A stretch of DNA of 30,260 bases, taken from IMG/VR virus record IMGVR_UViG_3300031566_000252, positions 1 to 30,260 of that record. One strand, written 5' to 3'. Positions within the stretch are counted from its first letter, which is position 1, and the number at the start of each line of letters is the position of its first letter. The translations under genes were made by a program, and so were the position numbers. The notes beneath the pieces were generated by a model. It saw only the letters and a program-made list of their open reading frames with translations, did not search any database and had not been told where the DNA came from. Below are positions 1-30,260 of the stretch, piece by piece. This DNA is from a virus.

Positions 1-127
1 TCTGTAATCTGTGTTTGTGTCTATGTTTAATGATTGTGAATTTTTTAATACTGAAATAAAGTCGCCTATGATTTGTAGCATATCGCTTAACACATCATTT
101 TCATTTCCCTCATCTTTACTAACTAAG
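1..127. repeat. Left copy of an exact 127-nt duplication of the window ends (identical to 30134..30260). It indicates a circular or circularly permuted genome linearised inside a gene.
   Basis: Read directly: bases 1..127 and 30134..30260 are identical, and a minus-strand ORF continues through the junction in frame. Confidence 0.95.
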
Positions 128-2543: not shown

Positions 2544-2883
2544 TAGTTAAATTGATATTAATTTGTATAGGCTCATCATCAGTAGTCATATCCATTTGCT
2601 GCTTCTCCCAATATCCTCTTTTCCTACCTTTAGTCTTTAGGTAAAAGATAGTAGCAGAGGTGTTATCATTCTTAATCTGTTTGAATAATTGGCTTTCAGC
2701 AAAGTCTAATGCTACTCCCTCTATTTCTTTGACCTGTTTAGCAAAGTCCTCATCTTCTTTTAACCAATTATAGAATGTACTTCTAGCCACTCCAACTGAT
2801 TTACAGGCAAATGTTACCACACCTAAAGATTGTTCAAGTGCTTCTAATACTTTCTCCTTTTTTATGTGTCCATTTTTGTCCAT
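2533..2883 (-). CDS. terS: Terminase small subunit (HTH type)
   Basis: 116 aa. HTH segment GVARSTFYNWLKED and the motif ATIFYLKTKGRKRGYW typical of phage small terminases. Lies directly upstream of and overlapping terL. Confidence 0.75.
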   Translation of the reverse strand: MDKNGHIKKEKVLEALEQSLGVVTFACKSVGVARSTFYNWLKEDEDFAKQVKEIEGVALDFAESQLFKQIKNDNTSATIFYLKTKGRKRGYWEKQQMDMTTDDEPIQININLTNED

Positions 2884-3542
2884 TAGTCTAGGCTTTCATA
2901 AGGTATATTCAATGCTTCTATGACTGCAAATTCAAATACTTTGCTATCATTGTCATATCCATTTAATTGTTTCATTCTTGTCTTTAGTTCTAACCATCTT
3001 TGAAATGTGTCTGATGATACCTTTAATGATATTGAATTGTCAAACTTATCTTCCTTTTCTAAATCTAAAGGTGCATCTTCTTCTACATCAAATTGCTCCC
3101 AATCAAAGTTTAAGACATCTATCATATTAGATATTTCCTTTTCATCAAACGGCATTGTTTCAGCCATCTTTTCAATAGAATAGACTTCTTTTAATTCTTC
3201 AAAGGTTTCTCCTAACTTAAAAGCATTAGACTTAAATCTAGTTTCATTAGTTTCAATAGCAACGATTTGAGCATCTGCTTTAGACATCTCTCCATAGTTA
3301 TATGCGTGAGCCTTATCCATACCTATTTCTCTCATTACATCTAATCTGTGGTTACCATTTACCACTTCATACTTATCTCCTAGTTCTCTTATTTGAATGT
3401 TCTCTACTTGTCCATTCTTTTTGAAATTAGCTATAAGTTTTTCAGTTTGTTTTTCATCTTCTTCCTTATAGTTCCAATCTGCTTTTACTAAGTCTTTGAT
3501 TTCTATATCTACCCAACCCAGTTTATGTTTCTTTTTTGCCAT
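2883..3542 (-). CDS. ParB-like N-terminal (ParB/Srx nuclease-like) domain protein
   Basis: 219 aa. ParB-fold signature YEVVNGNHRLDVM. Its start overlaps the 3' end of the DpdA gene by 34 nt. Confidence 0.7.
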   Translation of the reverse strand: MAKKKHKLGWVDIEIKDLVKADWNYKEEDEKQTEKLIANFKKNGQVENIQIRELGDKYEVVNGNHRLDVMREIGMDKAHAYNYGEMSKADAQIVAIETNETRFKSNAFKLGETFEELKEVYSIEKMAETMPFDEKEISNMIDVLNFDWEQFDVEEDAPLDLEKEDKFDNSISLKVSSDTFQRWLELKTRMKQLNGYDNDSKVFEFAVIEALNIPYESLD

Positions 3543-4387
3543 AGTTCTGTATAAAATTGTTCGTATTCTTTATATGCTTTGATACCTAATCTCATATTGT
3601 ATAATCTTCTTTTGGCTAAATCATCTCCAAATAGAATTTCAGTATCTAATTTACCTAACTTATTTATTACTTTTTGTTTATCCTTAAACCTAACTGCTTT
3701 GATACTTCCTTTTTCGTGGAATGGTATTGTTCCATACATTTCACTTTGTAACCAACTTGTACTATCAACAGAATAGAAAGGATAGTTTCTTAATACTTCT
3801 GTTTTAGTCATAGCAAATCCGTGTACCTTTATTCCTCTATCATAAGCAGGTTTGATTAATTTGTTATAGTTTAATCTTTTCCTGTGTCCTCTATCTCCCT
3901 CCAATGCTATGTAGCCACTCTCACAAGTATCAAGCATTTCCATATAATCATTCCAATCCATTGTGGTTGGGTGGTAAACAGGTACGCATTTAGAATAAAG
4001 GTTTTCTTTTCTTAATACATCTCTCCATTCCAATACTACTTCTTGTGTTACTATCTCTCCAATATCTAATTCAGCATAGTAATCAAACTTGTCAAAGTTT
4101 TCTTTTAGCCATATAACATAAGCATCAAAGTATTCTTGTGGTGTTTCCTTTGTCTTACTTTTCTTTGAATGAAAGGTTGCACTCATTACTCCCTCCTCTG
4201 ATTTTTCATTAAAGAAAGAATGTGCACCACTATCAATGAATAGTATCTTATGTGCTTCTTTAGTACCCTCCATTACTTGTGGTCTTTTGTTACCTCTTAA
4301 GTAATAGTAAGAATAGAAAGCATATTCTATTTCATTTTTAACCTTTTGTGGCTCTCCACCCTCAACACCTGCTAGAAATATTTTCAT
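3509..4387 (-). CDS. dpdA: DpdA-family DNA guanine transglycosylase (TGT-like 7-deazaguanine inserting enzyme)
   Basis: 292 aa. Signatures FIDSGAHSF, YIALEG, KVHGFAMT and YSVDSTSW match the DpdA/TGT-like pattern. Sits in an operon with queD/queE/folE. Confidence 0.8.
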   Translation of the reverse strand: MKIFLAGVEGGEPQKVKNEIEYAFYSYYYLRGNKRPQVMEGTKEAHKILFIDSGAHSFFNEKSEEGVMSATFHSKKSKTKETPQEYFDAYVIWLKENFDKFDYYAELDIGEIVTQEVVLEWRDVLRKENLYSKCVPVYHPTTMDWNDYMEMLDTCESGYIALEGDRGHRKRLNYNKLIKPAYDRGIKVHGFAMTKTEVLRNYPFYSVDSTSWLQSEMYGTIPFHEKGSIKAVRFKDKQKVINKLGKLDTEILFGDDLAKRRLYNMRLGIKAYKEYEQFYTELWQKRNINWVG

Positions 4388-5328
4388 AATAATTTAAGTA
4401 TGTTATCAAAGTTCTTAACCTTATATGGTTTAGGCTTCTTGTAATTGTGTATAGCATTGTGTACTTTATCAATCAATTCTTCCATATTATCAAATAGGTT
4501 ATCAGGTAATGTTTCCCTATAAGATAATCTATTAGGTGCAAATGGTATGCAACCTAAATTTAAACTTTCTAACATAGCTATACCAAATGTTTCTTGTAAT
4601 GCAAAACTAACTGATACTTTTGCTCTTGATAATAACTTATAGTATTCATCCTTAGTAGTCCAAACATCTTTTGTTTTTATCCATTCTATTTTATCATTAG
4701 GATATTTTTCTTTGTAGTCTTCTATCAGTTTATCAAATAAGAAAGGTTGTTTTTCATTTGCCAACCTGTGTGGAAATACTACTATATCTTCTTTTGGTTG
4801 TGGCTTATGATTATCAGTAAATACAGGAAACTTTTCTACCACTATCTTATCCCAAGTAGCACCAAAGTATTCTTCTATAATTTTTTTATGAAAGTCAGTA
4901 GCTACTATAACTTTATCTACACATTCTATCATAGCAAATTCCACACCTGTTGCCCACCTTGTCAATTCCTTTTGTGCTAGGAAATCATACTTATCCCAAC
5001 AACCTGCGTGTAACATTCCAACCATTTTAAACTTTAAGTCCATACAATCTCTTATGTATGCTATGTTAGTTACTATGGGATTCCATAAGTCTAAAAAGAA
5101 TATAGTATCATCATCAGTTATCTTACCCTCTTTGATAAGTTTAATGATTTCTAATCCCTGTTCTAGTTTAAATTGGTTAGTACCTATCACATCAAGGAAC
5201 TCTCCCTCTTTGATTTCTTGTACTTCTTGATTACCTACAATTACATCCACCTTATCTTTTAAGGCATCTAACCATTGTTTAGTATATCTTTCTTCTATTG
5301 ATTCTATGTGTGCTAAAATTATTGCCAT
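4384..5328 (-). CDS. GT-B fold glycosyltransferase (GT4/GT1-like) embedded in the deazaguanine island
   Basis: 314 aa. C-terminal E-x7-E motif QETFGIAMLESLNLGCIPFAPNRLSYRE, and the second Rossmann domain begins VVFPHRLANEKQPFLF. ATGA overlap with dpdA. Confidence 0.75.
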   Translation of the reverse strand: MAIILAHIESIEERYTKQWLDALKDKVDVIVGNQEVQEIKEGEFLDVIGTNQFKLEQGLEIIKLIKEGKITDDDTIFFLDLWNPIVTNIAYIRDCMDLKFKMVGMLHAGCWDKYDFLAQKELTRWATGVEFAMIECVDKVIVATDFHKKIIEEYFGATWDKIVVEKFPVFTDNHKPQPKEDIVVFPHRLANEKQPFLFDKLIEDYKEKYPNDKIEWIKTKDVWTTKDEYYKLLSRAKVSVSFALQETFGIAMLESLNLGCIPFAPNRLSYRETLPDNLFDNMEELIDKVHNAIHNYKKPKPYKVKNFDNILKLL

Positions 5329-5642
5329 ACCTCTGCTCCATTTTCATTGTCCTCTAATACAGAACAATAGTTTAATTGAAATACTGTTAGTAATTCTTTT
5401 GCTATCATTTCACAAGACATATCTCCAAATGTTTTAGGGTACATATCTTCTAGGAATTGATTGATAGTTCTTTTCAATAGTATGATTTCTATATCTCTAT
5501 CATCGTGGGTAACTTCTTTCTTGCAACATATATGAAAAATATGTCTGTGTGGAAATGCTAGAAACTCAACTCCCTCTAACTTACAATCAGTCCATTGGTG
5601 TACTGCTTCGTGTTGTAGGTTTACTATTATATTTGTTTTCAT
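5319..5642 (-). CDS. Small T-fold (QueD/PTPS-like) protein; second paralogue of unknown role
   Basis: 107 aa. The pattern LQHEAVHQW..C...(x)..FPHRHIFHI resembles the QueD/PTPS Zn-binding H...H / HxH arrangement. Overlaps both neighbours. Confidence 0.45.
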   Translation of the reverse strand: MKTNIIVNLQHEAVHQWTDCKLEGVEFLAFPHRHIFHICCKKEVTHDDRDIEIILLKRTINQFLEDMYPKTFGDMSCEMIAKELLTVFQLNYCSVLEDNENGAEVWQ

Positions 5643-6469
5643 TTAATTAATTCTAGAAATTCACTTTTCACTTTATGGTCTGTTTTAAAATTACCTATCA
5701 GCTTTGATGTGGTAGTCCAAGTGTCGTGTTTCTTAACACCTCTCATCTCCATACACATATGTTTAGCCTTTAAGACTACTGCTATACCTAAAGGGTCTAG
5801 TTCCTCTTGCAGAAACTCTGCTACTTGTGTTGTTATTCTTTCTTGGTTTTGTAATCTTCTGCTAAAGGTTTCCAAAGTTCTAGCTAATTTACTTAATCCA
5901 ACTATTCTTTTGTTAGGTATGTAAGCTATGTGTCCGTGTCCAAAGAATGGTGCTACGTGATGTTCACACAAAGAATGAAAAGGTATATTAGTTTGTACAA
6001 TCATTTCATCATATCCCTCACTTTCAAAAGTGGTACAATTCCATTTAGGAGGATTAAGAAACTCCTTAAAGAATTTAACATATCTTTTTGGTGTATCTTG
6101 TAAACCCTCTCTGTTTGTATCTTCTCCAAATGCTTGTAACAATCTTGCCACACTATCTTCTGCATCTCGTTCTCCTGATTCTTCCCAAGGAAACTCTAAC
6201 CAACCTAAATCAGTTTCATCTATCTTATTCCATAAAGCAACAAAAGGAATATCAGGATATTTATCTTTCCACTTCATTGCCGTTCTACCACTATCAATTA
6301 AATCATCAACTATGTAATCAGCTTGTTCAGGTGTATCTACTGCATTTCCTGTTAGTCCTGCAATGATTTGTCCACCTCTAGGTACTCCATAGTATTTTCC
6401 TTTAGGTAATTTTTTTACTCTTTCATAAATTTGTTCCCAAGTAATTACACTCCTGTTGTTTTGTTCCAT
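5639..6469 (-). CDS. folE: Fusion protein: N-terminal minimal Gpt-like phosphoribosyltransferase domain plus GTP cyclohydrolase I (FolE)
   Basis: 276 aa. Residues 1-97 align by eye with E. coli Gpt (ITWEQIYERVKKL / VPRGG / YIVDDLIDSGRT PRPP loop / WLEFPWEE). Residues ~100-276 carry GCH-I signatures LQDTPKRY, CEHHVAPF, GLSKLAR, QNQERIT and KHMCMEMRGV. Confidence 0.85.
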   Translation of the reverse strand: MEQNNRSVITWEQIYERVKKLPKGKYYGVPRGGQIIAGLTGNAVDTPEQADYIVDDLIDSGRTAMKWKDKYPDIPFVALWNKIDETDLGWLEFPWEESGERDAEDSVARLLQAFGEDTNREGLQDTPKRYVKFFKEFLNPPKWNCTTFESEGYDEMIVQTNIPFHSLCEHHVAPFFGHGHIAYIPNKRIVGLSKLARTLETFSRRLQNQERITTQVAEFLQEELDPLGIAVVLKAKHMCMEMRGVKKHDTWTTTSKLIGNFKTDHKVKSEFLELIK

Positions 6470-7170
6470 AATTCAATTTGTAACCTTGTACAGAATTTAA
6501 TACTCTCACGAATACATAAGTCTGCTACAAAGTTTTGATTAGTTTTTAATTCAGTTAAGTCCTCTGCATTAGGCATCAGATATATTTTGTTTCTGTCTAC
6601 ATTAAATTCTTGTATCTCATTCCAATTATCTTCATTGCTTATAACAAATTTAAAAATAGATACAGGACTATTGTTAAAAAATTCAATCACTTCTGGTATG
6701 TGTCTTTTGTTTTTAGGCATTCCACTATTACCAAGTTTAGGACTAACATTATATAAATCAATCCAATAATCTAATTCCTCTAATGGCTCAATCGTTCCAT
6801 TTGTTTCTACTTCTACAAAAGGATGATAACCTTTATTGGATAAGTAATTCATTACCTCAATGATTGCTTTCTGTTGCATTAAAGGTTCTCCACCTGTCCA
6901 AATTAGATGTGTACCTTTTTTCATTTGCTCTCCGTACAAATCAATAAGCATTTTGCCTACTTCTTCTACTTCATAAGTTATACCTTTTGTCCAAACTTCT
7001 AATGTGTCGCACCTCCAAGTTGCTCCATCATATAGTTGTCCATCTTTCTGTGTGCCATAACCTCCACACAATAAATTACAAGCCTTTAATCTAACAAAGA
7101 TAGCAGGTACACCCATTGTTTCTCCCTCGCCCTGTAAACTATAAAAATGTTCTGATACTTTAATTTTCAT
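6445..7170 (-). CDS. queE: 7-carboxy-7-deazaguanine synthase (QueE, radical SAM)
   Basis: FYSLQGEG N-terminal motif, cysteine cluster ACNLLC...WRCDT, and GGEPL. I prefer the ATG at 7170 over the track's GTG at 7179. Confidence 0.8.
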   Translation of the reverse strand: MKIKVSEHFYSLQGEGETMGVPAIFVRLKACNLLCGGYGTQKDGQLYDGATWRCDTLEVWTKGITYEVEEVGKMLIDLYGEQMKKGTHLIWTGGEPLMQQKAIIEVMNYLSNKGYHPFVEVETNGTIEPLEELDYWIDLYNVSPKLGNSGMPKNKRHIPEVIEFFNNSPVSIFKFVISNEDNWNEIQEFNVDRNKIYLMPNAEDLTELKTNQNFVADLCIRESIKFCTRLQIELWNKTTGV

Positions 7171-7618
7171 ATGATGCACTATTTTTGTTGTTTTCTCTTA
7201 CTGTTACTTTACTTACCTTTACTCTATTTGACGTTTCTTTACATACAAATTCATTTACCTTATTGTAAATAAACTCTGCAAACTTTTCAGCACCTACATC
7301 ATCAATCTTTCTTAACTGAATAATTTTAGATTCTTCTAATATATTATACATATACATTTTAGGGTCATCATTGGCTACTATCATAGTATGGTCAAACATA
7401 TAATCAAACCATTCTTTAGGACTTTTGCCATCAATAGTTCCTTTGGCTCTTTTCATTCCTCCGAAATCCCATACCCAATTCCTATCGTCTAACTCTCCCT
7501 CAAATTCTATAAGAAAAGAAAGTGCGTATCCGTGCAAGTAATAACAATGTGTATCTATTGCGTGGTGTTGTCTGAACACACAAGAATAACCATCAAATAA
7601 CTTACTACTCTTAAACAT
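7160..7618 (-). CDS. queD: QueD-family 6-carboxytetrahydropterin synthase-like T-fold protein (LHGY variant)
   Basis: 152 aa. FRQHH...HCYYLHGYALSF...WVWDFGGMK...FDHTMIV parallels E. coli QueD AAHRL...KCGRLHGHSF...IIDFAELK...LDHHYLN. The third His is replaced by Tyr. Confidence 0.7.
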   Translation of the reverse strand: MFKSSKLFDGYSCVFRQHHAIDTHCYYLHGYALSFLIEFEGELDDRNWVWDFGGMKRAKGTIDGKSPKEWFDYMFDHTMIVANDDPKMYMYNILEESKIIQLRKIDDVGAEKFAEFIYNKVNEFVCKETSNRVKVSKVTVRENNKNSASYEN

Positions 7619-7874
7619 TTTCCTGCTTCTTTATAAGTTCTAATTCAAATTCCAAATGGTCTATTGCTTTCTGTATGTCTTGTGCCTTTGGATTGTTAGC
7701 TTTCTTACCTGCTCTTAACAAGTAGGTAACTGCCGTTCCCACATTATAAGTTAAAAGAAAGTCATCTATAACCTCGTTGGCTTTGATGCCCTTAAAGATA
7801 CCTTTGTAATAGTTAGGAGTATCTTTTTCTTCTAATCCATTTCTAGTATAATCGTAGTAGTATTTACTTTGCAT
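7611..7874 (-). CDS. DUF3310-like phage protein
   Basis: 87 aa. The motif VGTAVTYLLRAGKK...KAIDHL resembles the DUF3310 family (GNAxKYxxRxGxK). Confidence 0.5.
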   Translation of the reverse strand: MQSKYYYDYTRNGLEEKDTPNYYKGIFKGIKANEVIDDFLLTYNVGTAVTYLLRAGKKANNPKAQDIQKAIDHLEFELELIKKQENV

Positions 7875-9449: not shown

Positions 9450-9553
9450 TCATCAAATTCTTTTTGTCGTTTTTCTAATCTATAATCAAAATACATATCC
9501 AATAAAATATAAGATGCCATCATCAATAGTATTACTGCGTATAAGTATTTCAT
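9428..9553 (-). CDS. Possible 41-aa single-pass membrane micro-protein (absent from the ORF track)
   Basis: Hand translation: MKYLYAVILLMMASYILLDMYFDYRLEKRQKEFDEWQKKNQ. Its ATG forms an ATGA overlap with the stop of 9550..9765, and it fills an otherwise 100-nt gap. Confidence 0.4.
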   Translation of the reverse strand: MKYLYAVILLMMASYILLDMYFDYRLEKRQKEFDEWQKKNQ

Positions 9554-9765
9554 TTTACTAATGTGTATTTTGCAAAAGATACCTTTTCTCCAAATCTATT
9601 TCTGCTTTTTACTATATCAGTTTTTATATCATATCCCTCATCTTTAAGGTCATAAATAACTGCTGCTAATCTCATTATGGAGTATTCTTTTAACGCATCT
9701 AACGGATTAATACTTCCAATTGATTTCAAGTGTCTTAACACTTTTTGTTTCTGATTTAATTTCAT
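9550..9765 (-). CDS. Small winged-helix/HTH DNA-binding protein (HTH_39-like)
   Basis: 71 aa. LKSIGSINPLDALKEYSIMRLAAVIYDLKDEGYDI resembles the short phage HTH family with the RLAARIxELR motif. Confidence 0.55.
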   Translation of the reverse strand: MKLNQKQKVLRHLKSIGSINPLDALKEYSIMRLAAVIYDLKDEGYDIKTDIVKSRNRFGEKVSFAKYTLVK

Positions 9766-9777
9766 ATCTACTTTTTT

Positions 9778-10041
9778 TTATTTGATTACATTGTTTAGCC
9801 AAGATTTTAACTTACCTACTGCGTGATTCATCCAAGTTGCATTAAAGGTTTGTATTAAATCTAAAGTTGGTATCTCAACAATAACAGTTTTGCTAACGTG
9901 AGTTCTACCTAATTCATCTACAATTATTGGTACTTCTAATTGCATATGTGTTGTGTTGCCATCAACTGCTATACTTGAAATTTCTTTTACCGAACAATAG
10001 ATATGTTTGGCATCTTCACTTTTTTTACTTAATCTAGTCAT
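9778..10041 (-). CDS. Hypothetical protein (87 aa)
   Basis: Minus-strand ORF with an ATGA overlap to the upstream gene. Confidence 0.65.
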   Translation of the reverse strand: MTRLSKKSEDAKHIYCSVKEISSIAVDGNTTHMQLEVPIIVDELGRTHVSKTVIVEIPTLDLIQTFNATWMNHAVGKLKSWLNNVIK

Positions 10042-10439
10042 TTTAATAATTTTGCTTGGTTAATAGTTAAACTTATTTGCTTTTGAGACCTTTGGTATCT
10101 ATCCCACATTGTTAATTGATTTGTCTGTCTTAATAATGCTTCTGATGTCTTATGTTTTTTAAGCCACACACTCCATTGTCTGACATTCAAGAAACAACTA
10201 CTACCATCAGTACCATCTCTAACTCCTGATTCAAATACATAACTAACTTCTTCCATAGTCATACCTCCGTAGTAATGGATAAGGTCGTTGTATAAGAGCC
10301 TAGAGTTCAATTTTATTTGCTTATCATCAGGCTTCTGTCCTAATTCAATATAAGTTTTAGTCATTAGATTATAGACATCTAATTTCAAAGAACTAATATC
10401 ATTCCTTTTTATTCTAGAAAATATCTTTTCCGTTTGCAT
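10038..10439 (-). CDS. Hypothetical protein (133 aa), replication-module neighbour
   Basis: Minus-strand ORF overlapping the 3' end of the initiator gene. I recognised no motif. Confidence 0.7.
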   Translation of the reverse strand: MQTEKIFSRIKRNDISSLKLDVYNLMTKTYIELGQKPDDKQIKLNSRLLYNDLIHYYGGMTMEEVSYVFESGVRDGTDGSSCFLNVRQWSVWLKKHKTSEALLRQTNQLTMWDRYQRSQKQISLTINQAKLLK

Positions 10440-11070
10440 ATTCCTGTATTGTCTTATTATAATCTGTTAATACTGTTTCTACACTAGACTTCTTTTTATC
10501 ATTGAAACCATTTTTCATCCACCTCTGCATTCTCCTTTTGACATCAAAGGTACTTTGCTTTTCAAACTTCATTTTTTTACCTGTAGGACTTTTTTCTGTC
10601 CAATAGTCTATAAAGTTATCTAATTCAGTAAAACCTAATTCAGAAGCTATACTTTCCCATTCTAATAAATAATAAGTATTTTCTTTTTTAAGTATCTTAT
10701 TATCATTAGTACTTACTAGTACCTGATTTTCTAAATTAAGGTTTTCCATACTAAGGTTTTCCATATTAAGGTTTTCTAATATAGGTGTTTCACTTACAAT
10801 ATAATGTACTCCTTGCAACTTACCTTTAATCCTTTGTCGTTCCCTTTTAACATATCCATTATCCTCTAATTCCTTTATGGCAGAATAAATAGCAGTTATG
10901 CCGTCCTTATGCCTAGTAGCTAATTCCGTAGCATAGACACTCCAATCGTTCGGTAATGATAATAGATAAGCCAACAAGCCTTTTCCTTTAAGAGACAAGC
11001 TCTTATCACGTAAGAACACATTACTAATGACTGTATAGTTCTCATTCTTCTTAACTGTTATTTTCTCCAT
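10414..11070 (-). CDS. Winged-helix replication initiator / replisome-organizer-like protein
   Basis: 218 aa. N-terminal YTVISNVFLRDKSLSLKGKGLLAYLLSLPNDW...AIKELEDNGYVKRE is typical of phage/plasmid wHTH initiators. A central pentapeptide repeat, ENLNMENLSMENLNLEN, is encoded by 15-bp iterons. Confidence 0.65.
   Translation of the reverse strand: MEKITVKKNENYTVISNVFLRDKSLSLKGKGLLAYLLSLPNDWSVYATELATRHKDGITAIYSAIKELEDNGYVKRERQRIKGKLQGVHYIVSETPILENLNMENLSMENLNLENQVLVSTNDNKILKKENTYYLLEWESIASELGFTELDNFIDYWTEKSPTGKKMKFEKQSTFDVKRRMQRWMKNGFNDKKKSSVETVLTDYNKTIQEYANGKDIF
10721..10780. repeat. Tandem 15-bp repeats (3 good copies plus 1 degenerate) inside the initiator gene; candidate origin iterons
   Basis: TTAAGGTTTTCCATA (10736..10750), CTAAGGTTTTCCATA (10751..10765), TTAAGGTTTTCTAAT (10766..10780), and degenerate ACCTGATTTTCTAAA (10721..10735). 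Confidence 0.85.
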
Positions 11071-11497
11071 TACTCATTGCGTTAAATTCATTATTCAGCA
11101 TATTCTTTTTTCTATTCAAACTTGCTATCTTTTCATCTATATCATTCAACTCTAATAAAACACCTAAAGGATTATCTTCGTATACATAATCTAAAGACTT
11201 CCAATATTCCTCTTTAACTTTGTTATACAATTTATTGTATTGAGGATAAACTCTAGCATCTGACATATATCTTTCGTGTTCCTTTTCATAGAAATATAAA
11301 GATGTTCTATGCCTATCTATATATTTTGATAAACTTGCATAACCTATTTCTATATCCACTAGCATAAAGGAACAAAATACTTGCCTTGCTCTACAATAGT
11401 CAGGAGTTCTTCTTCTGCTATCTATTGCACCCATTGGTAAATCAGCTTCTTTTTCTACCAAGTACTTTAATGTTCTAACTTTACTATTATAGTCCAT
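11051..11497 (-). CDS. DnaA C-terminal domain-like HTH DNA-binding protein
   Basis: 148 aa. SRRRTPDYCRARQVFCSFMLV...SLSKYIDRHRTSLYFYEKE resembles DnaA domain IV (Bac_DnaA_C). Confidence 0.55.
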   Translation of the reverse strand: MDYNSKVRTLKYLVEKEADLPMGAIDSRRRTPDYCRARQVFCSFMLVDIEIGYASLSKYIDRHRTSLYFYEKEHERYMSDARVYPQYNKLYNKVKEEYWKSLDYVYEDNPLGVLLELNDIDEKIASLNRKKNMLNNEFNAMSNGENNS

Positions 11498-11879
11498 ATT
11501 CTTCTTCTATTTCTTCAATTATTAAATTAATATCTTCTTGGTCTAAATTTCTATTCCATCTTTCATTAAGAGTAGAACTAGAATACAATACCACTTCTCC
11601 ATATATGTATGCTAACATATTTGCTACATTTTCAGGACTACTAATATCGGTATAGGTTTCTCCAAAATGGTCTTTTTCATATTCCTGTATCTCTCCTATT
11701 GCATCAAATACTGACATATGACTTTCAATCCATTTTTTAGCTTTGTAATATCCTATAATAAAATAATCTTCATTCCATAAATAATGGTGTAAATCACTAG
11801 CATCATTATCTAATCCTATTCCATCTTGTAGTTTGCTTACTGTTTCTTCGGCAATTTCTACTAATATATTTCTATTCAT
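11487..11879 (-). CDS. Hypothetical acidic protein (130 aa)
   Basis: Minus-strand ORF preceded by the SD-like cassette TAGGAAATTATG. Confidence 0.75.
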   Translation of the reverse strand: MNRNILVEIAEETVSKLQDGIGLDNDASDLHHYLWNEDYFIIGYYKAKKWIESHMSVFDAIGEIQEYEKDHFGETYTDISSPENVANMLAYIYGEVVLYSSSTLNERWNRNLDQEDINLIIEEIEEEYGL

Positions 11880-11885
11880 AATTTC

Positions 11886-12071
11886 CTATTTTAATTTGTT
11901 ATCATCTTGTTTTAATACCTCATACATATCAGGGTCTAATTCTTTTATTTGCTTATAAATCTTTCTAGCTTCTGCTTTTGCTTTCTCGGTTACACTCTTA
12001 GGTATATCCGTTCCAGTCGCTTCATTTATTATCAAATGAGCCTTATGTAATAATTTGTCTACTTCGTTCAT
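11886..12071 (-). CDS. Hypothetical protein (61 aa)
   Basis: Minus-strand ORF packed tightly between its neighbours. Confidence 0.6.
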   Translation of the reverse strand: MNEVDKLLHKAHLIINEATGTDIPKSVTEKAKAEARKIYKQIKELDPDMYEVLKQDDNKLK

Positions 12072-12075
12072 AATA

Positions 12076-12312
12076 TTAATAGTCTTCGTTATCTAGTTCA
12101 GAGTAATGGTCTTTCATTTTCTCATCATATTCGTATTGCTCTATCAAATCATAATCCCAACTTGTATCTCCACATTCAGAACAATAATAAATCTTGTCAT
12201 CGTGTGCTAAACTTTCTTTTACTTCTTCTTCGCTACCACAACAAGAGGTAACCAAGTCGCTATCCCTCCCCTCGTCGAAAGGATTGGATAGCTTATATTG
12301 GTCATAGTTCAT
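12076..12312 (-). CDS. Hypothetical Cys-containing acidic protein (78 aa from ATG 12312)
   Basis: The ATG at 12312 lies 1 nt after the upstream stop (12314). Contains SCCGS...CSECG cysteine pairs. Confidence 0.6.
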   Translation of the reverse strand: MNYDQYKLSNPFDEGRDSDLVTSCCGSEEEVKESLAHDDKIYYCSECGDTSWDYDLIEQYEYDEKMKDHYSELDNEDY

Positions 12313-12313
12313 A

Positions 12314-12637
12314 TTAAAAAGGTAAACCATTATGTTCTTCTTCTTGAACTACTTCTTGTCCTACTTTTTGCATCTTCCATACATCAGCACTAGTATAATA
12401 GTTGCCTTTGTATTCTCGACTACTTAAATTGAACAATACCTCAATGTCATCTCCTACATTGAAGCCGATTAACATATCAACCTTTTCTTGTCCGAAAAGA
12501 TTAAAACATATTTCAGGATTAAATTTAGCACCATTGTCTAATACAAAGGATTGCTTTACCCATTCCTTACCTGCTTTTGAAACACCTTTTTGTGCATCTA
12601 ATACTTTGGCTAACTTGCCTTTCATTTCTAAATTCAT
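12314..12637 (-). CDS. DUF3127-like OB-fold protein with an SSB-type C-terminal tail (putative ssDNA-binding protein)
   Basis: 107 aa. MKGKLAKVLDAQKGVSKAGKEWVKQSFVLD...SREYKGNYYT matches the Bacteroidota DUF3127 pattern. An acidic tail ends in LPF, like the bacterial SSB DDDIPF tip. Confidence 0.6.
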   Translation of the reverse strand: MNLEMKGKLAKVLDAQKGVSKAGKEWVKQSFVLDNGAKFNPEICFNLFGQEKVDMLIGFNVGDDIEVLFNLSSREYKGNYYTSADVWKMQKVGQEVVQEEEHNGLPF

Positions 12638-12655
12638 AATAATTAATTTGATTGG

Positions 12656-13045
12656 TTACTTTTTAAAACTTTCTGATTCATCTTCTGCAAATACTCCAAG
12701 AGCATAAAGTCCTGCCAACTTAAGTACGGCTCTACTCATTGCTCTTTTCTCTGCCATTTCCATTACATACCACGTATTGGTATTGCCATCTTTGAAACTT
12801 GCACCCTTTAAGGCACTTCCAAAGGTTTCTATGTAATTAGCATCGTGTATGGAAGCCTTTGCCTTAACTACTGCAAATTCAGGCTTACAACTAATAACTT
12901 CATATTCAATACTAATATCAAAACCTGCTTGAAGTTTATCTACACCACTCCTTGTGATGATTGTGTAATGCTGATGTTGAAATACATCTTCTGCTACCAA
13001 GCCATTATCCTTAAATAACTTGTTCATTGTTTCTTTTCTTGTCAT
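12656..13045 (-). CDS. Possible Rad52/Sak-like single-strand annealing protein
   Basis: 129 aa. FGSALKG...MEMAEKRAMSRAVLKLAG is reminiscent of the Rad52/Sak motif GxG...A.EKA.KxAxTDxLKRAxxxFG. Adjacent to the SSB-like gene. Confidence 0.35.
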   Translation of the reverse strand: MTRKETMNKLFKDNGLVAEDVFQHQHYTIITRSGVDKLQAGFDISIEYEVISCKPEFAVVKAKASIHDANYIETFGSALKGASFKDGNTNTWYVMEMAEKRAMSRAVLKLAGLYALGVFAEDESESFKK

Positions 13046-30007: not shown

Positions 30008-30260
30008 TTATTCTATTGCTCCATTACAAGCACTATAATCAAAGAATACTCTAATTGATAAGTCAGCCACCCAACCTGTTACATCATCATCAAATCGTTC
30101 TGTAAATGGTTGGCAGTTAATATTATCTTGTAGTCTGTAATCTGTGTTTGTGTCTATGTTTAATGATTGTGAATTTTTTAATACTGAAATAAAGTCGCCT
30201 ATGATTTGTAGCATATCGCTTAACACATCATTTTCATTTCCCTCATCTTTACTAACTAAG
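30008..30260 (-). CDS. C-terminal part of the junction-spanning 162-aa gene (same gene as 1..363)
   Basis: The reading frame is open from the window end (30260) to the stop at 30008. The track's GTG start at 30226 is internal to the longer ORF seen in the left copy. Confidence 0.75.
   Translation of the reverse strand, partial: LVSKDEGNENDVLSDMLQIIGDFISVLKNSQSLNIDTNTDYRLQDNINCQPFTERFDDDVTGWVADLSIRVFFDYSACNGAIE
30134..30260. repeat. Right copy of the exact 127-nt terminal duplication
   Basis: Identical to 1..127, read directly. Confidence 0.95.

Follow-up and report, generated by a model that had tools for sequence, protein, structure and literature searches.

A probable DpdL-type 7-deazaguanine DNA-modification island with an associated glycosyltransferase in a compact 30-kb phage

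How does a phage that encodes the enzymes for 7-carboxy-7-deazaguanine (CDG) but no QueC complete a DNA modification, and what might a glycosyltransferase contribute to it? The question is raised by IMG/VR record IMGVR_UViG_3300031566_000252, whose full 30,260 nucleotides were analysed here (hereafter, the window). An unbroken run of overlapping minus-strand genes at 2883-7618 encodes a QueD-like protein, QueE, a Gpt-like::FolE fusion, a small T-fold protein (DpdL, as argued below), a glycosyltransferase (GT), DpdA, and a ParB-like protein, and is followed directly by TerS and TerL. All seven ORFs were found on the minus strand at the coordinates given below, with neighbours overlapping by 1-34 nt, in agreement with a preliminary description of the locus. 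That description proposed that three non-canonical components, namely a PRTase domain, a second T-fold protein, and the GT, occupy the place of QueC in an undescribed hypermodification route. Its coordinates also took in a small DUF3310-like ORF upstream of QueD (87 aa; 7611..7874, minus strand), which overlaps QueD by 8 nt, matches Pfam DUF3310 below the cut-off (0.0015), and matches just the C-terminal part of the “nucleotide kinase” family phrog_236 (1.3e-14); this ORF is a candidate island member at most.

The ends of the window are exactly identical over 127 bp, and independent contigs of 30.3-30.6 kb span the junction between them; the window is therefore a complete circular phage genome of approximately 30.1 kb. 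Searches of all six frames by tblastn and phmmer with phage QueC and Gat-QueC returned a best E of 0.8, no SGGxDS motif occurs in the window, and QueF and amidotransferases are absent from it. Because the window is the whole genome, QueC is missing from the entire phage and not just from the region of the island, so that the absence reported in the preliminary description holds genome-wide. Among the 36 minus-strand ORFs scanned (some 25 short ORFs of 41-133 aa lie outside this set), no polymerase, pyrimidine hydroxymethylase, NDP-sugar gene, kinase, reductase, or dGTPase was found; for the short-ORF regions, the precomputed Pfam annotation of sister contigs lists DUF3127, HTH_39, and a weak DUF6171 and nothing else.

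The three genes of the CDG module are readily recognized. The QueD-like 6-carboxytetrahydropterin synthase (152 aa; 7160..7618, minus strand) matches Pfam PTPS (1.5e-13; 51 bits versus a cut-off of 22.4) and phrog_2389 (1.3e-35). It carries the motif CYYLHGY rather than the canonical CxxxHGH, and is 58% identical to the QueD of Cellulophaga phage phiST, which shares the HGY variant, as do 12 of the 32 DpdL-linked QueDs in which the motif was located. QueE, the radical-SAM CDG synthase (241 aa; 6445..7170, minus strand), matches phrog_2076 from end to end (1.1e-49), its top NCBIfam matches are all QueE models (1.6e-17), albeit below their cut-offs, and a Cx3Cx18C cluster motif can be read from its sequence. 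Finally, the FolE (GTP cyclohydrolase I) domain (5639..6169) of the fusion gene (5639..6469, minus strand) matches Pfam GTP_cyclohydroI at aa 104-275 (1.1e-65) and NCBIfam folE models above their cut-off.

The small T-fold protein (107 aa; 5319..5642, minus strand), a QueD paralogue, is 45% identical to phiST CGPG_00067 (E 3e-22) and matches phrog_17812 (2.7e-23). Its motif LAFPHRHIF fits the published DpdL signature LxxxHRHxF exactly, and all family invariants are kept (H15, L28, H32, H34, F36, R49, E52, S76-C77-E78, and E97-D98). By these sequence features the protein is DpdL, which the preliminary description had itself named among the families to look for, and which is the proposed CDG decarboxylase of phiST, in whose DNA dG is fully (100%) replaced by dDG (Cui et al., NAR 2023, PMC10516641). 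The phages in which the same study found DpdL are precisely of this kind, with DpdA, FolE, QueD, and QueE and without QueC; with the T-fold protein identified as DpdL, the QueC-less layout belongs to a pathway type already described. The dpdL and dpdA genes of ACP17 or phiST gave no dDG in E. coli, and further enzymes are perhaps needed (Cui et al. 2023).

Like the window, the phiST dDG pathway (FolE, QueD, QueE, DpdL, and DpdA3) combines a CDG module and DpdL with the absence of QueC, in the gene order QueD-QueE-FolE-DpdL-x-DpdA and with a CxxxHGY variant of QueD. The differences lie around this core: the phrog_887-type transglycosylase of the window has no BLASTP similarity to DpdA3, phiST has MazG and a P-loop kinase-like gene (AAA_18) at the position of the GT, and the window possesses both a Gpt-like domain on FolE and an adjoining ParB-like gene, neither of which occurs in phiST.

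At its N-terminus, the fusion carries a short Gpt-like (xanthine-guanine PRTase-like) domain of ~100 aa (6170..6469, minus strand). Its PRTase matches are weak (phrog_8995, 1.4e-4; NCBIfam xanthine PRTase, 2.5e-5), and similarity to PDB XGPRT chains (E 3.5e-4) falls at two motifs, an RGG loop and the PRPP motif DDLxDSG(x)T. Between these motifs the domain lacks ~37 residues of E. coli Gpt, which we take to be two strands and the flexible catalytic loop of the PRTase structure. The same short domain precedes FolE in 34 phage records, QueC-encoding Queuovirinae among them. Two phages serve as examples: in the QueC-encoding Vibrio phage VpKK5 the domain and FolE form one fusion protein, and in the Gat-QueC-encoding Pseudomonas phage PaMx25 the domain sits immediately upstream of where folE is annotated to start. 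Since it accompanies FolE in phages with QueC or Gat-QueC, the domain is independent of QueC loss and does not stand in for QueC.

DpdA, a DNA guanine transglycosylase of a divergent subfamily (292 aa; 3509..4387, minus strand), matches phrog_887 (1.3e-31) and no Pfam family, TGT included. It has 164 phage tblastn matches, phages 9g and CAjan included, and in those listed records that carry annotation, the match falls on a tgt/DpdA gene or a “hypothetical protein”. Six residues are invariant across 32 small DpdAs: D52 (DSGA), D108, H139, H189, and S206 and D208 (SVDSTSW). AF2 models the protein as a TIM barrel (pLDDT 90.5); Foldseek did not single out TGT, and no specific tie of the fold to solved TGT structures was found. 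The Queuovirinae-type clusters (9g, CAjan, PaMx25, and VpKK5), which join DpdA and FolE/QueD/QueE to QueC or Gat-QueC to yield dPreQ0 or dG+, have a DpdA of the same broad family (phmmer ~1e-13 to PaMx25 and VpKK5), with a common DSGA...SVDS(T/S)SW core. Unlike the window, they encode a canonical QueD (HGH) and lack both DpdL and the GT.

Overlapping dpdA by 34 nt is the gene for a ParB/Srx-fold protein (219 aa; 2883..3542, minus strand), which matches phrog_723 (2.6e-14), NCBIfam ParB/Noc (1e-6), and Pfam ParB_N (0.007), with no PADLOC match at E <= 0.01. The pairing is conserved: in relatives, as well as in the QueC-type cluster L139, the gene immediately after the homologous DpdA is a ParB_N gene. 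In the bacterial Dpd system, a DNA transglycosylase gene is likewise coupled directly to a ParB-fold gene, whose product, the ATPase DpdB, is needed by DpdA (Gedara et al., NAR 2023, PMC10164549). The window protein carries NGNHR where DpdB has a DGQQR motif, and the restriction components DpdD-K are absent from the window. By analogy, the ParB-like protein is a possible DpdB-like helper of DpdA.

There remains the GT (314 aa; 4384..5328, minus strand), which matches Pfam Glycos_transf_1 above the gathering score (2.3e-7). Its AlphaFold model has a GT-B fold (pLDDT 94.8), and the best PDB matches of the model are retaining GT4 enzymes, namely MshA (E 4e-10, TM 0.68), BshA, TarM, and glycogen synthase; identity to any solved GT is only 10-18%. 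The diphosphate-binding R188 and K193 and the EX7E motif (E246-x7-E254), features shared with MshA and BshA, are invariant in 44 homologues, and together with the confident model they suggest that the enzyme is active. The acceptor-binding N-domain has invariants of its own (E9, R14, Y15, W19, D46, D80, W82, H107, D112, D115, and W125). The family is acidic (median pI 5.9) and its closest structural neighbours work on small molecules, both of which count against action on DNA; the T4 glucosyltransferases are not among the 50 structural matches listed for the model.

This GT is found well beyond the window, as a widespread companion of DpdL and DpdA. Relatives are encoded on at least 594 viral contigs in IMG/VR. 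The loci compared are phylogenetically related, so that the counts are not of independent events: among the 79 IMG/VR loci retrieved with the GT, 77 contain DpdL and 74 a TGT-like gene, and no QueC lies within 10 kb in any of them; DpdL lies on the same strand within 6 kb of the GT in 92/94 GT loci. The GT-DpdL-DpdA triad occurs in the cultured phages PA5oct, ACP17, BUCT-ZZ01, X1, Phosso, and BCSR5, and in 28 loci from assemblies of bacterial and archaeal genomes, of which many are MAGs; linkage extends over Bacteroidota-like, Pseudomonas, Acidovorax, cyanobacterial, and rhizobial phages. In published work, the DNA of PA5oct behaves as G-modified. At one locus, L138, genes for an epimerase, a sugar nucleotidyltransferase, and a dehydratase lie beyond the DpdL-(rSAM)-GT-DpdA-ParB block, separated from it by a few genes. 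Such NDP-sugar genes beside the module are rare: no locus but L138 has all of them, and four others have a dehydratase homologue. In the literature searched, no glycosyltransferase is tied to deazaguanine DNA, and neither Hutinet 2019 nor Cui 2023 contains, in its full text, a word starting “glycosyl” or “phosphoribosyl”, in keeping with the earlier statement that no described phage deazaguanine needs such an enzyme. Of the three components thought to be unexplained, the GT still is; the T-fold protein is accounted for as DpdL and the Gpt-like domain as a common phage FolE partner. The candidate hypermodification thus survives in a narrower form, in which the GT is the only new part.

On balance, we favour the view that the locus is a DpdL-type 7-deazaguanine DNA-modification island of the phiST kind with one extra, conserved tailoring GT that adds a sugar. 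FolE, QueD, and QueE would convert GTP to CDG, the established chemistry of these families, and DpdL would convert CDG to 7-deazaguanine, as proposed by Cui et al. (2023). The short Gpt-like domain, as an accessory of FolE, may handle guanine, PRPP, or nucleotides. Since the phage has no DNA polymerase, its DNA would be copied by the host replisome from normal dNTPs, and DpdA, perhaps aided by the ParB-fold protein, would exchange guanine for the deazaguanine base in already replicated DNA. The GT4-like enzyme would transfer a sugar from a host NDP-sugar, most likely onto deazaguanine, either as the free base before insertion or already in DNA, to give a glycosylated derivative instead of plain dDG. 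Such a product is plausible. The acceptor atom is not obvious, in that C7 of 7-deazaguanine bears no hydroxyl or amine; a sugar would need a C-glycoside, a CDG acyl-glycoside, or attachment at N2/O6.

A possible though less probable reading is that the island yields plain dDG only, as in phiST, and that the GT puts no sugar on DNA, serving instead as a helper or scaffold for DpdL/DpdA, modifying or sequestering a free intermediate (for instance, to detoxify or store the base), or glycosylating a host or virion molecule. The want of an acceptor group and the acidic, MshA- and BshA-like character of the GT favour this, and the enzyme is dispensable for the core route, because phiST and its relatives make dDG without it and the window phage has GT-less relatives (L007 and L012). 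Even so, L007, 88% identical to the window up to the last dpdL codon and 75% again from the ParB gene, has a single different DpdA in exchange for the GT and DpdA (3511-5327), and this swap as one cassette argues for a role in the pathway. Likewise, the near-constant company of DpdL and a TGT-like gene, the invariant catalytic and donor-binding motifs, and the dedicated NDP-sugar genes in the block of L138 speak against plain dDG, and linkage across such diverse phages would not be expected of a GT whose role had nothing to do with the base.

The original proposal, that the pathway ends at or branches from CDG and that the PRTase domain, T-fold paralogue, and GT replace QueC, is unlikely. A nucleotide-level form of it, in which CDG or DG would react with PRPP to a ribotide, has precedent in the tubercidin and toyocamycin pathways, and could draw on the Gpt-like motifs, on full-length Gpt-like genes in 39/94 GT loci (e.g., in BUCT-ZZ01 and in PA5oct, whose gp163 matches Pfam Pribosyltran at 2e-11), and on the MazG and kinase-like genes beside DpdL in phiST-type clusters, which hint at nucleotide chemistry. 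Against it stand the residues missing from the Gpt-like domain and its presence in Queuovirinae with QueC or Gat-QueC, the identity of the T-fold protein with an enzyme already proposed, a 30-kb genome with no polymerase and none of the nucleotide enzymes sought in the scanned ORFs, and a DpdA with intact invariant residues. Finally, an auxiliary module for host queuosine/tRNA or folate metabolism, without phage DNA modification, is very improbable: FolE, QueD, and QueE are common to tRNA queuosine synthesis and the window DpdA has no Pfam TGT match and no link found to solved TGT structures, but its homologues include those of the experimentally studied 9g and CAjan, phages with such a gene set carry deazaguanines in DNA, and no preQ0 for tRNA can be made without QueC.

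If the GT does glycosylate deazaguanine, the island would follow the second-layer logic of T-even hydroxymethylcytosine glucosylation, in which the T4 alpha- and beta-glucosyltransferases, also of GT-B fold, use a host NDP-sugar on a non-canonical base; here, however, the enzyme is GT4-like, the base, a purine analogue, offers no hydroxymethyl handle, and the product is only proposed. Eukaryotic QTMAN/GTDC1, a GT4 enzyme, mannosylates queuosine in tRNA, and would thereby set a precedent for glycosylation of a 7-deazaguanine derivative inside nucleic acid by a GT4 enzyme, although queuosine has a diol and deazaguanine does not. Defence glycosylases that attack dDG DNA exist (bioRxiv 10.1101/2025.10.29.685425), and these would select for a second, sugar layer on the deazaguanine DNA of phages.

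The island lies on the minus strand as a run of genes in which neighbours overlap by 1–34 nt with no gap, and both this unbroken arrangement and the gene calls of the preliminary description were borne out by the open reading frame (ORF) list and by profile searches. The run comprises a QueD-like gene (7160–7618; Pfam PTPS PF01242, 1.5e-13, 51.2 bits against a cut-off of 22.4), QueE (6445–7170; phrog_2076, 1.1e-49), a 276-aa Gpt-like::FolE fusion (5639–6469), a 107-aa small T-fold protein identified here as DpdL (5319–5642), a 314-aa GT-B glycosyltransferase (GT; 4384–5328; Pfam Glycos_transf_1, 2.3e-7, above cut-off), a 292-aa DpdA (3509–4387; phrog_887 “queuine tRNA-ribosyltransferase”, 1.3e-31), and a 219-aa ParB-like protein (2883–3542; phrog_723, 2.6e-14), directly after which come the small and large terminase genes. 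A PADLOC scan returned matches neither to Dpd nor to other defence families. When the island was compared by megablast with 50,697 phage records, nothing matched, indicating a phage with no close cultured relative. A small DUF3310-like ORF (7611–7874) overlaps the start of QueD; in Rhizobium phage RHph_I1_18, a 422-aa DUF3310 protein (locus L105, 11065–12333) is encoded about 1.7 kb downstream of DpdL.

An exact 127-bp repeat is present at the two ends of the window (1–127 and 30134–30260), and independently assembled contigs of 30,274–30,567 bp from other samples cross these ends. The window is thus an entire phage genome of about 30,133 bp, circular or circularly permuted, with the break falling within a 162-aa gene. 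QueC is missing from the entire phage: tblastn and phmmer searches of all six frames with the QueC of VpKK5 and the Gat-QueC of PaMx25 reached a best E-value of only 0.8, and no SGGxDS-type motif occurs in any frame, so that the absence of QueC noted earlier holds over the complete circular genome. The rest of the genome encodes structural and lysis functions and small early proteins. A scan of 36 minus-strand ORFs revealed no DNA polymerase, thymidylate-synthase-like hydroxymethylase, or sugar-nucleotide gene; for the approximately 25 short ORFs (41–133 aa) outside that scan, precomputed Pfam assignments on sister contigs comprise only DUF3127, HTH_39, and a weak DUF6171.

The small T-fold protein, on sequence evidence, is DpdL, a putative decarboxylase of 7-carboxy-7-deazaguanine (CDG). 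Its tblastn homologues occur in Cellulophaga phages phiST, phi13:1, and phi19:2 and in Acidovorax phage ACP17, and it is 45% identical (BLASTP, E 3e-22) to phiST CGPG_00067, the QueD paralogue that was named DpdL and proposed to decarboxylate CDG in a phage whose dG is wholly replaced by 2'-deoxy-7-deazaguanosine (dDG) (Cui et al. 2023, PMC10516641). The signature LxxxHRHxF, as opposed to CxxxHGH of QueD, was reported for DpdL (PMC10516641), and the window protein reads LAFPHRHIF at aa 28–36; the same signature is found in 95 of 98 DpdL-like ORFs across the collected loci. Every one of the 13 invariant columns of a 13-member DpdL alignment is kept, and the protein co-occurs with DpdA, FolE, QueD, and QueE, without QueC, in a complete circular genome. 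The gene order also parallels that of phiST, with QueD-QueE-FolE-DpdL-GT-DpdA in the window and QueD-QueE-FolE-MazG-DpdL-CGPG_00066-DpdA3 in phiST. Given this order and the identity of the T-fold protein, the QueC-less layout represents an already described pathway type rather than a gap filled with new parts, and the T-fold paralogue is not the non-canonical occupant of the QueC slot that the preliminary description took it to be. The island follows the DpdL/dDG route but uses a DpdA of another subfamily and adds a conserved GT partner not described before.

Two further features of DpdL loci were observed. The phiST gene between DpdL and DpdA3, CGPG_00066 (locus L002, 7239–7718), was called unknown by Cui et al. 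(2023, PMC10516641); it and its homologue in phage MA9V-3 (locus L003, 7342–7812) match a P-loop kinase-like Pfam family (AAA_18, 1e-6 to 1e-7). The DpdL of MA9V-3 and that of Vibrio phage Bakedbeans each make up the C-terminal portion of a larger fusion (L003, 6461–7342; locus L104, 8221–9372).

The QueD and QueE proteins depart in detail from their canonical relatives. QueD exceeds the Pfam PTPS (PF01242) family cut-off, as expected of its fold, yet does not match the signature CxxxHGH, in which we take both histidines to be zinc ligands; the window reads CYYLHGY (aa 25–31), with a tyrosine in place of one of them. This HGY variant is common to the QueD proteins of the window, phiST, ACP17, and BUCT-ZZ01, and is presumably functional, since phiST still makes dDG. 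It was found in 12 of the 32 DpdL-linked QueDs in which the motif was located and in neither of two QueC-linked QueDs examined; with the other 20 DpdL-linked proteins reading HGH, the variant is ruled out as a specific mark of DpdL clusters. For QueE, all of the best NCBIfam matches are QueE models, each below its cut-off, and the cluster site consists of three cysteines spaced Cx3Cx18C (aa 31–54) rather than the usual Cx3Cx2C. Still longer inserts between the second and third cysteines are seen in PA5oct, BUCT-ZZ01, and X1.

The first ~100 aa of the FolE fusion weakly match xanthine-guanine phosphoribosyltransferase (PRTase) at both diagnostic motifs (PDB XGPRT, 3.5e-4; NCBIfam, 2.5e-5), while Pfam Pribosyltran gave no match at E ≤ 0.01; the FolE part (aa 104–275) is supported by both NCBIfam and Pfam (1e-65). 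Relative to E. coli Gpt, the RGG loop, the DDLIDSGRT PRPP motif, and a C-terminal WxxFPWE are kept, whereas approximately 37 residues between the motifs (Gpt 49–85) are gone, leaving an incomplete PRTase core. The E. coli Gpt sequence used agrees with the PDB alignments of the fusion; in PRTase structures, the missing residues form two strands and the flexible catalytic loop. A Gpt-like domain of about 100 aa precedes FolE in 34 phage records. For example, it is fused to FolE in the QueC-encoding VpKK5 and lies directly upstream of the annotated folE start in the Gat-QueC-encoding PaMx25, so that it is not tied to the loss of QueC and cannot be assigned to the QueC slot as was first suggested. 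In PaMx25 (locus L004, 5862–6243), the Gpt-like coding sequence is overlapped by an annotated “hypothetical protein”, gp38, whose translation gives no alignment to the Gpt-like domain; the deposited annotation probably truncates a Gpt::FolE fusion. Separate, full-length Gpt-like ORFs are present in 39 of 94 GT loci, including those of BUCT-ZZ01 and PA5oct (gp163; Pfam Pribosyltran, 2e-11). The domain may serve in guanine, PRPP, or nucleotide handling, such as the recycling of DpdA-released guanine towards GTP, and it is doubtful whether the short form can be catalytically active.

The window DpdA matches the tgt products of PaMx25 and VpKK5 by phmmer (~1e-13), and tblastn located matches in 164 phage records, including the DpdA genes of 9g and CAjan over the HGF...SVDSxSW core; where annotated, the matched genes are called tgt/DpdA or “hypothetical protein”. 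It has no Pfam match, including to Pfam TGT, and PDB sequence and profile searches with the window protein, a 40-member family profile, PaMx25 DpdA, and PA5oct gp168 returned nothing meaningful. The AF2 model (pLDDT 90.5) is a (beta/alpha) TIM barrel for which the top Foldseek matches are generic TIM barrels (E ≥ 1.7e-4), none of them a TGT. The 32 small DpdAs compared, those of QueC-encoding Queuovirinae included, share without exception residues D52 (DSGA), D108, H139, H189, S206, and D208 (SVDSTSW), and D52 and D208 are presumed, by analogy with TGT, to be catalytic-type aspartates. In 26 of 28 GT-linked small DpdAs, DSGA is followed by H or P (V and F in one each), and in the GT-less proteins by F; this position was given no weight, since the GT-linked PA5oct gp168-type proteins have a canonical DSGGFQ.

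In relatives of the window and in loci L138 and L139, the gene immediately after the homologous DpdA is of the ParB_N family; L139 (6345–8535) is a QueC-type cluster ordered QueC-DpdA-ParB-QueD-QueE-FolE. In Arthrobacter phage Mufasa8, genes 90 and 91 likewise encode DpdA and then ParB_N within a QueC-type (preQ0) cluster. From this recurrence, DpdA and ParB may generally be paired in phages, much as DpdA is with DpdB in bacteria, where DpdB, a ParB-fold ATPase, is required for insertion of preQ0 by DpdA (PMC10164549). The window protein has ParB-family matches and a conserved position next to dpdA, carries NGNHR in place of the DGQQR NTPase motif, and had no PADLOC match at E ≤ 0.01. It is reasonable to suggest by analogy that it may act as a DpdB-like helper of DpdA.

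The point of interest in the island is the widespread triad of GT, DpdL, and DpdA. The AlphaFold model of the GT, built with 44 homologues (pLDDT 94.8), has a GT-B fold with retaining GT4 enzymes as its nearest neighbours, namely MshA (E 4e-10, TM 0.68), followed by BshA, TarM, and glycogen synthase. R188 and K193 (FPHRLAxEKQP) and E246-x7-E254 are invariant among the 44 homologues, and the predicted donor site therefore appears intact. The family is acidic, with a median pI of 5.9 versus 8.2 for DpdA. It comprises 193 clusters at E ≤ 1e-5 and is found on at least 594 IMG/VR contigs; a BFVD search with the model gave the ACP17 homologue, which bears no functional annotation, as the sole close match.

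Within 6 kb of the GT and on its strand, a DpdL ORF is found in 92 of 94 GT loci, FolE in 77, and QueE in 59. The 79 IMG/VR loci include 77 with DpdL, 74 with a TGT-like gene, and none with QueC. Bacterial and archaeal genome assemblies, often MAGs, supplied 28 loci, 20 of them with DpdL and 26 with a TGT-like gene. One large BUCT-ZZ01 neighbour is a second GT rather than a DpdA. The TGT-like partner is of three types: the small phrog_887 DpdA of the window; a phrog_10773 protein, as in ACP17, X1, and BUCT-ZZ01; and the PA5oct gp168-type protein. Cultured phages with the triad include ACP17, PA5oct and its relatives, Phosso, BUCT-ZZ01, X1, and BCSR5. About 16 of 27 cultured phages with a DpdL tblastn match also have GT, and BCSR5, which has both genes, was missed by that search. 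DpdL without GT is found in phiST-type phages, MA9V-3, and the metagenomic loci L007 and L012–L014.

An example of linkage is seen in L007 (IMGVR_UViG_3300009172_000954), which is 87.8% identical to the window from 8911 down to 5328, the end of dpdL; the alignment resumes at 3510 into the ParB gene at 74.7% identity. Between these flanks, the 1.8 kb of the window encoding GT and DpdA (3511–5327) corresponds to 0.9 kb in L007 (3640–4545) encoding one different DpdA, also of phrog_887, which is 23% identical to the window DpdA and 32% identical to that of the GT-less L012. This cassette replacement between conserved flanks indicates that GT and its own DpdA are exchanged as a unit. In another example, locus L138, from an 83-kb contig (GCA_043956535.1, JBINNZ010004840.1), is ordered QueD-QueE-PRTase::FolE-DpdL-radical SAM/SPASM-GT-DpdA-ParB-ParB, with a DpdA 41% identical to that of the window, and beyond this block lie a 119-aa ORF, an epimerase, a 158-aa ORF, a sugar-1-phosphate nucleotidyltransferase, and an NDP-sugar dehydratase (sugar genes at 9478–12732). 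These sugar genes look like a dedicated donor supply for GT; they are rare in the set, a dehydratase homologue occurring in four other loci. Together, the cassette replacement and the L138 sugar genes tie GT to the deazaguanine pathway.

Several GT loci carry additional genes. Extra radical-SAM families, which are not present in the window, lie between DpdL and GT in 27 small-DpdA clusters, 18 with a 431-aa type (e.g., L021, 3790–5085) and nine with a 324-aa SPASM type (e.g., L138, 4932–5906), which suggests more elaborate chemistry in those lineages. GT and a TGT-like gene also occur in bacterial chromosomes. In L127, on a 424-kb contig of Magnetospirillum aberrantis, they are accompanied by DpdL and QueD, and the neighbouring genes encode an HEPN protein, a CoiA-like nuclease, and a histidine kinase–response regulator pair; in L135 (Pseudooctadecabacter jejudonensis), the neighbours are a C5 DNA methylase, DUF3800, a Vut_1/YhhQ-like transporter, a second GT, and an integrase. 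These neighbours look like defence or mobile-island genes, and the islands could represent the equivalent of the phage module in bacteria. Finally, Xanthomonas phage PhiXhv-12 (locus L103, 6771–10005) carries a distant GT relative (23% identity) beside a Gat-QueC-like gene and an LmbE/BshB-type deacetylase, and may have a separate sugar chemistry beside its deazaguanine gene.

In the pathway that is best supported, GTP would be converted to CDG by FolE, QueD, and QueE and CDG to 7-deazaguanine by DpdL, and DpdA, possibly with the ParB-like protein, would exchange this base into host-replicated phage DNA. The GT would be a pathway-specific tailoring enzyme using a host NDP-sugar as donor, and we lean only slightly towards its acting before insertion, on the free base rather than on DNA, in view of the acidic family, the small-molecule GT4 neighbours, and the co-exchange with DpdA. 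The main rival reading is that plain dDG is made and that the GT does something else. Glycosylation would be chemically difficult, since 7-deazaguanine has no C7 hydroxyl or amine. Under the rival reading, the window would simply add a new, compact example to the dDG pathway type already known; the rival has the linkage of GT to the pathway, through the L007 cassette and the L138 sugar genes, to contend with. Cui et al. (2023, PMC10516641) found no dDG with dpdL and dpdA of phiST or ACP17 in E. coli, and proposed that the reaction might call for additional enzymes. The GT sits between dpdL and dpdA in ACP17, and may account for the absent product from that pair. It is thus tentatively suggested, as a possibility to which we give somewhat less than an even chance, that the GT of DpdL/DpdA loci leads to a sugar-bearing 7-deazaguanine in this phage, in hundreds of uncultured lineages, in PA5oct, ACP17, BUCT-ZZ01, and X1, and in the alphaproteobacterial islands, with some lineages elaborating it further through radical-SAM and their own NDP-sugar genes.

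In the searchable literature, no paper was found linking a glycosyltransferase to DpdL, DpdA, or deazaguanine DNA, though an earlier prediction may exist in Iyer et al. 2013 (NAR), which deals with predicted DNA-modification systems, or in the supplement of Cui et al. 2023. The full texts of Hutinet 2019 and Cui 2023 contain zero words starting with “glycosyl” or “phosphoribosyl”, in keeping with the earlier statement that no described phage deazaguanine is known to need a glycosyltransferase or a PRTase. The initial observation is therefore confirmed and its interpretation partly supported: as a candidate for undescribed hypermodification, the island retains the GT-DpdL-DpdA triad with its undescribed GT, and loses the QueC-less route to the identity of DpdL and the PRTase domain to its presence in QueC phages.

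PA5oct DNA is reported to resist cleavage at several G-containing restriction sites and to be a target of modified-G-specific nucleases (PMC12191111). Defence glycosylases that attack dDG DNA have also been described (bioRxiv 10.1101/2025.10.29.685425), and such enzymes would favour phages that modify their DNA one layer further. With the triad common (at least 594 viral contigs) and present in growable phages, the prediction is directly testable by mass spectrometry. To our knowledge, all known sugar-decorated DNA bases are pyrimidines (glucosyl- and arabinosyl-hmC, base J, and glycosylated hmU derivatives). A sugar-bearing 7-deazaguanine, if true, would be the first glycosylated purine analogue in DNA and a new chemical class of DNA hypermodification, and would shield these phages, as a second layer of protection, from the restriction enzymes, END nucleases, and defence glycosylases that are known to target deazaguanine DNA.
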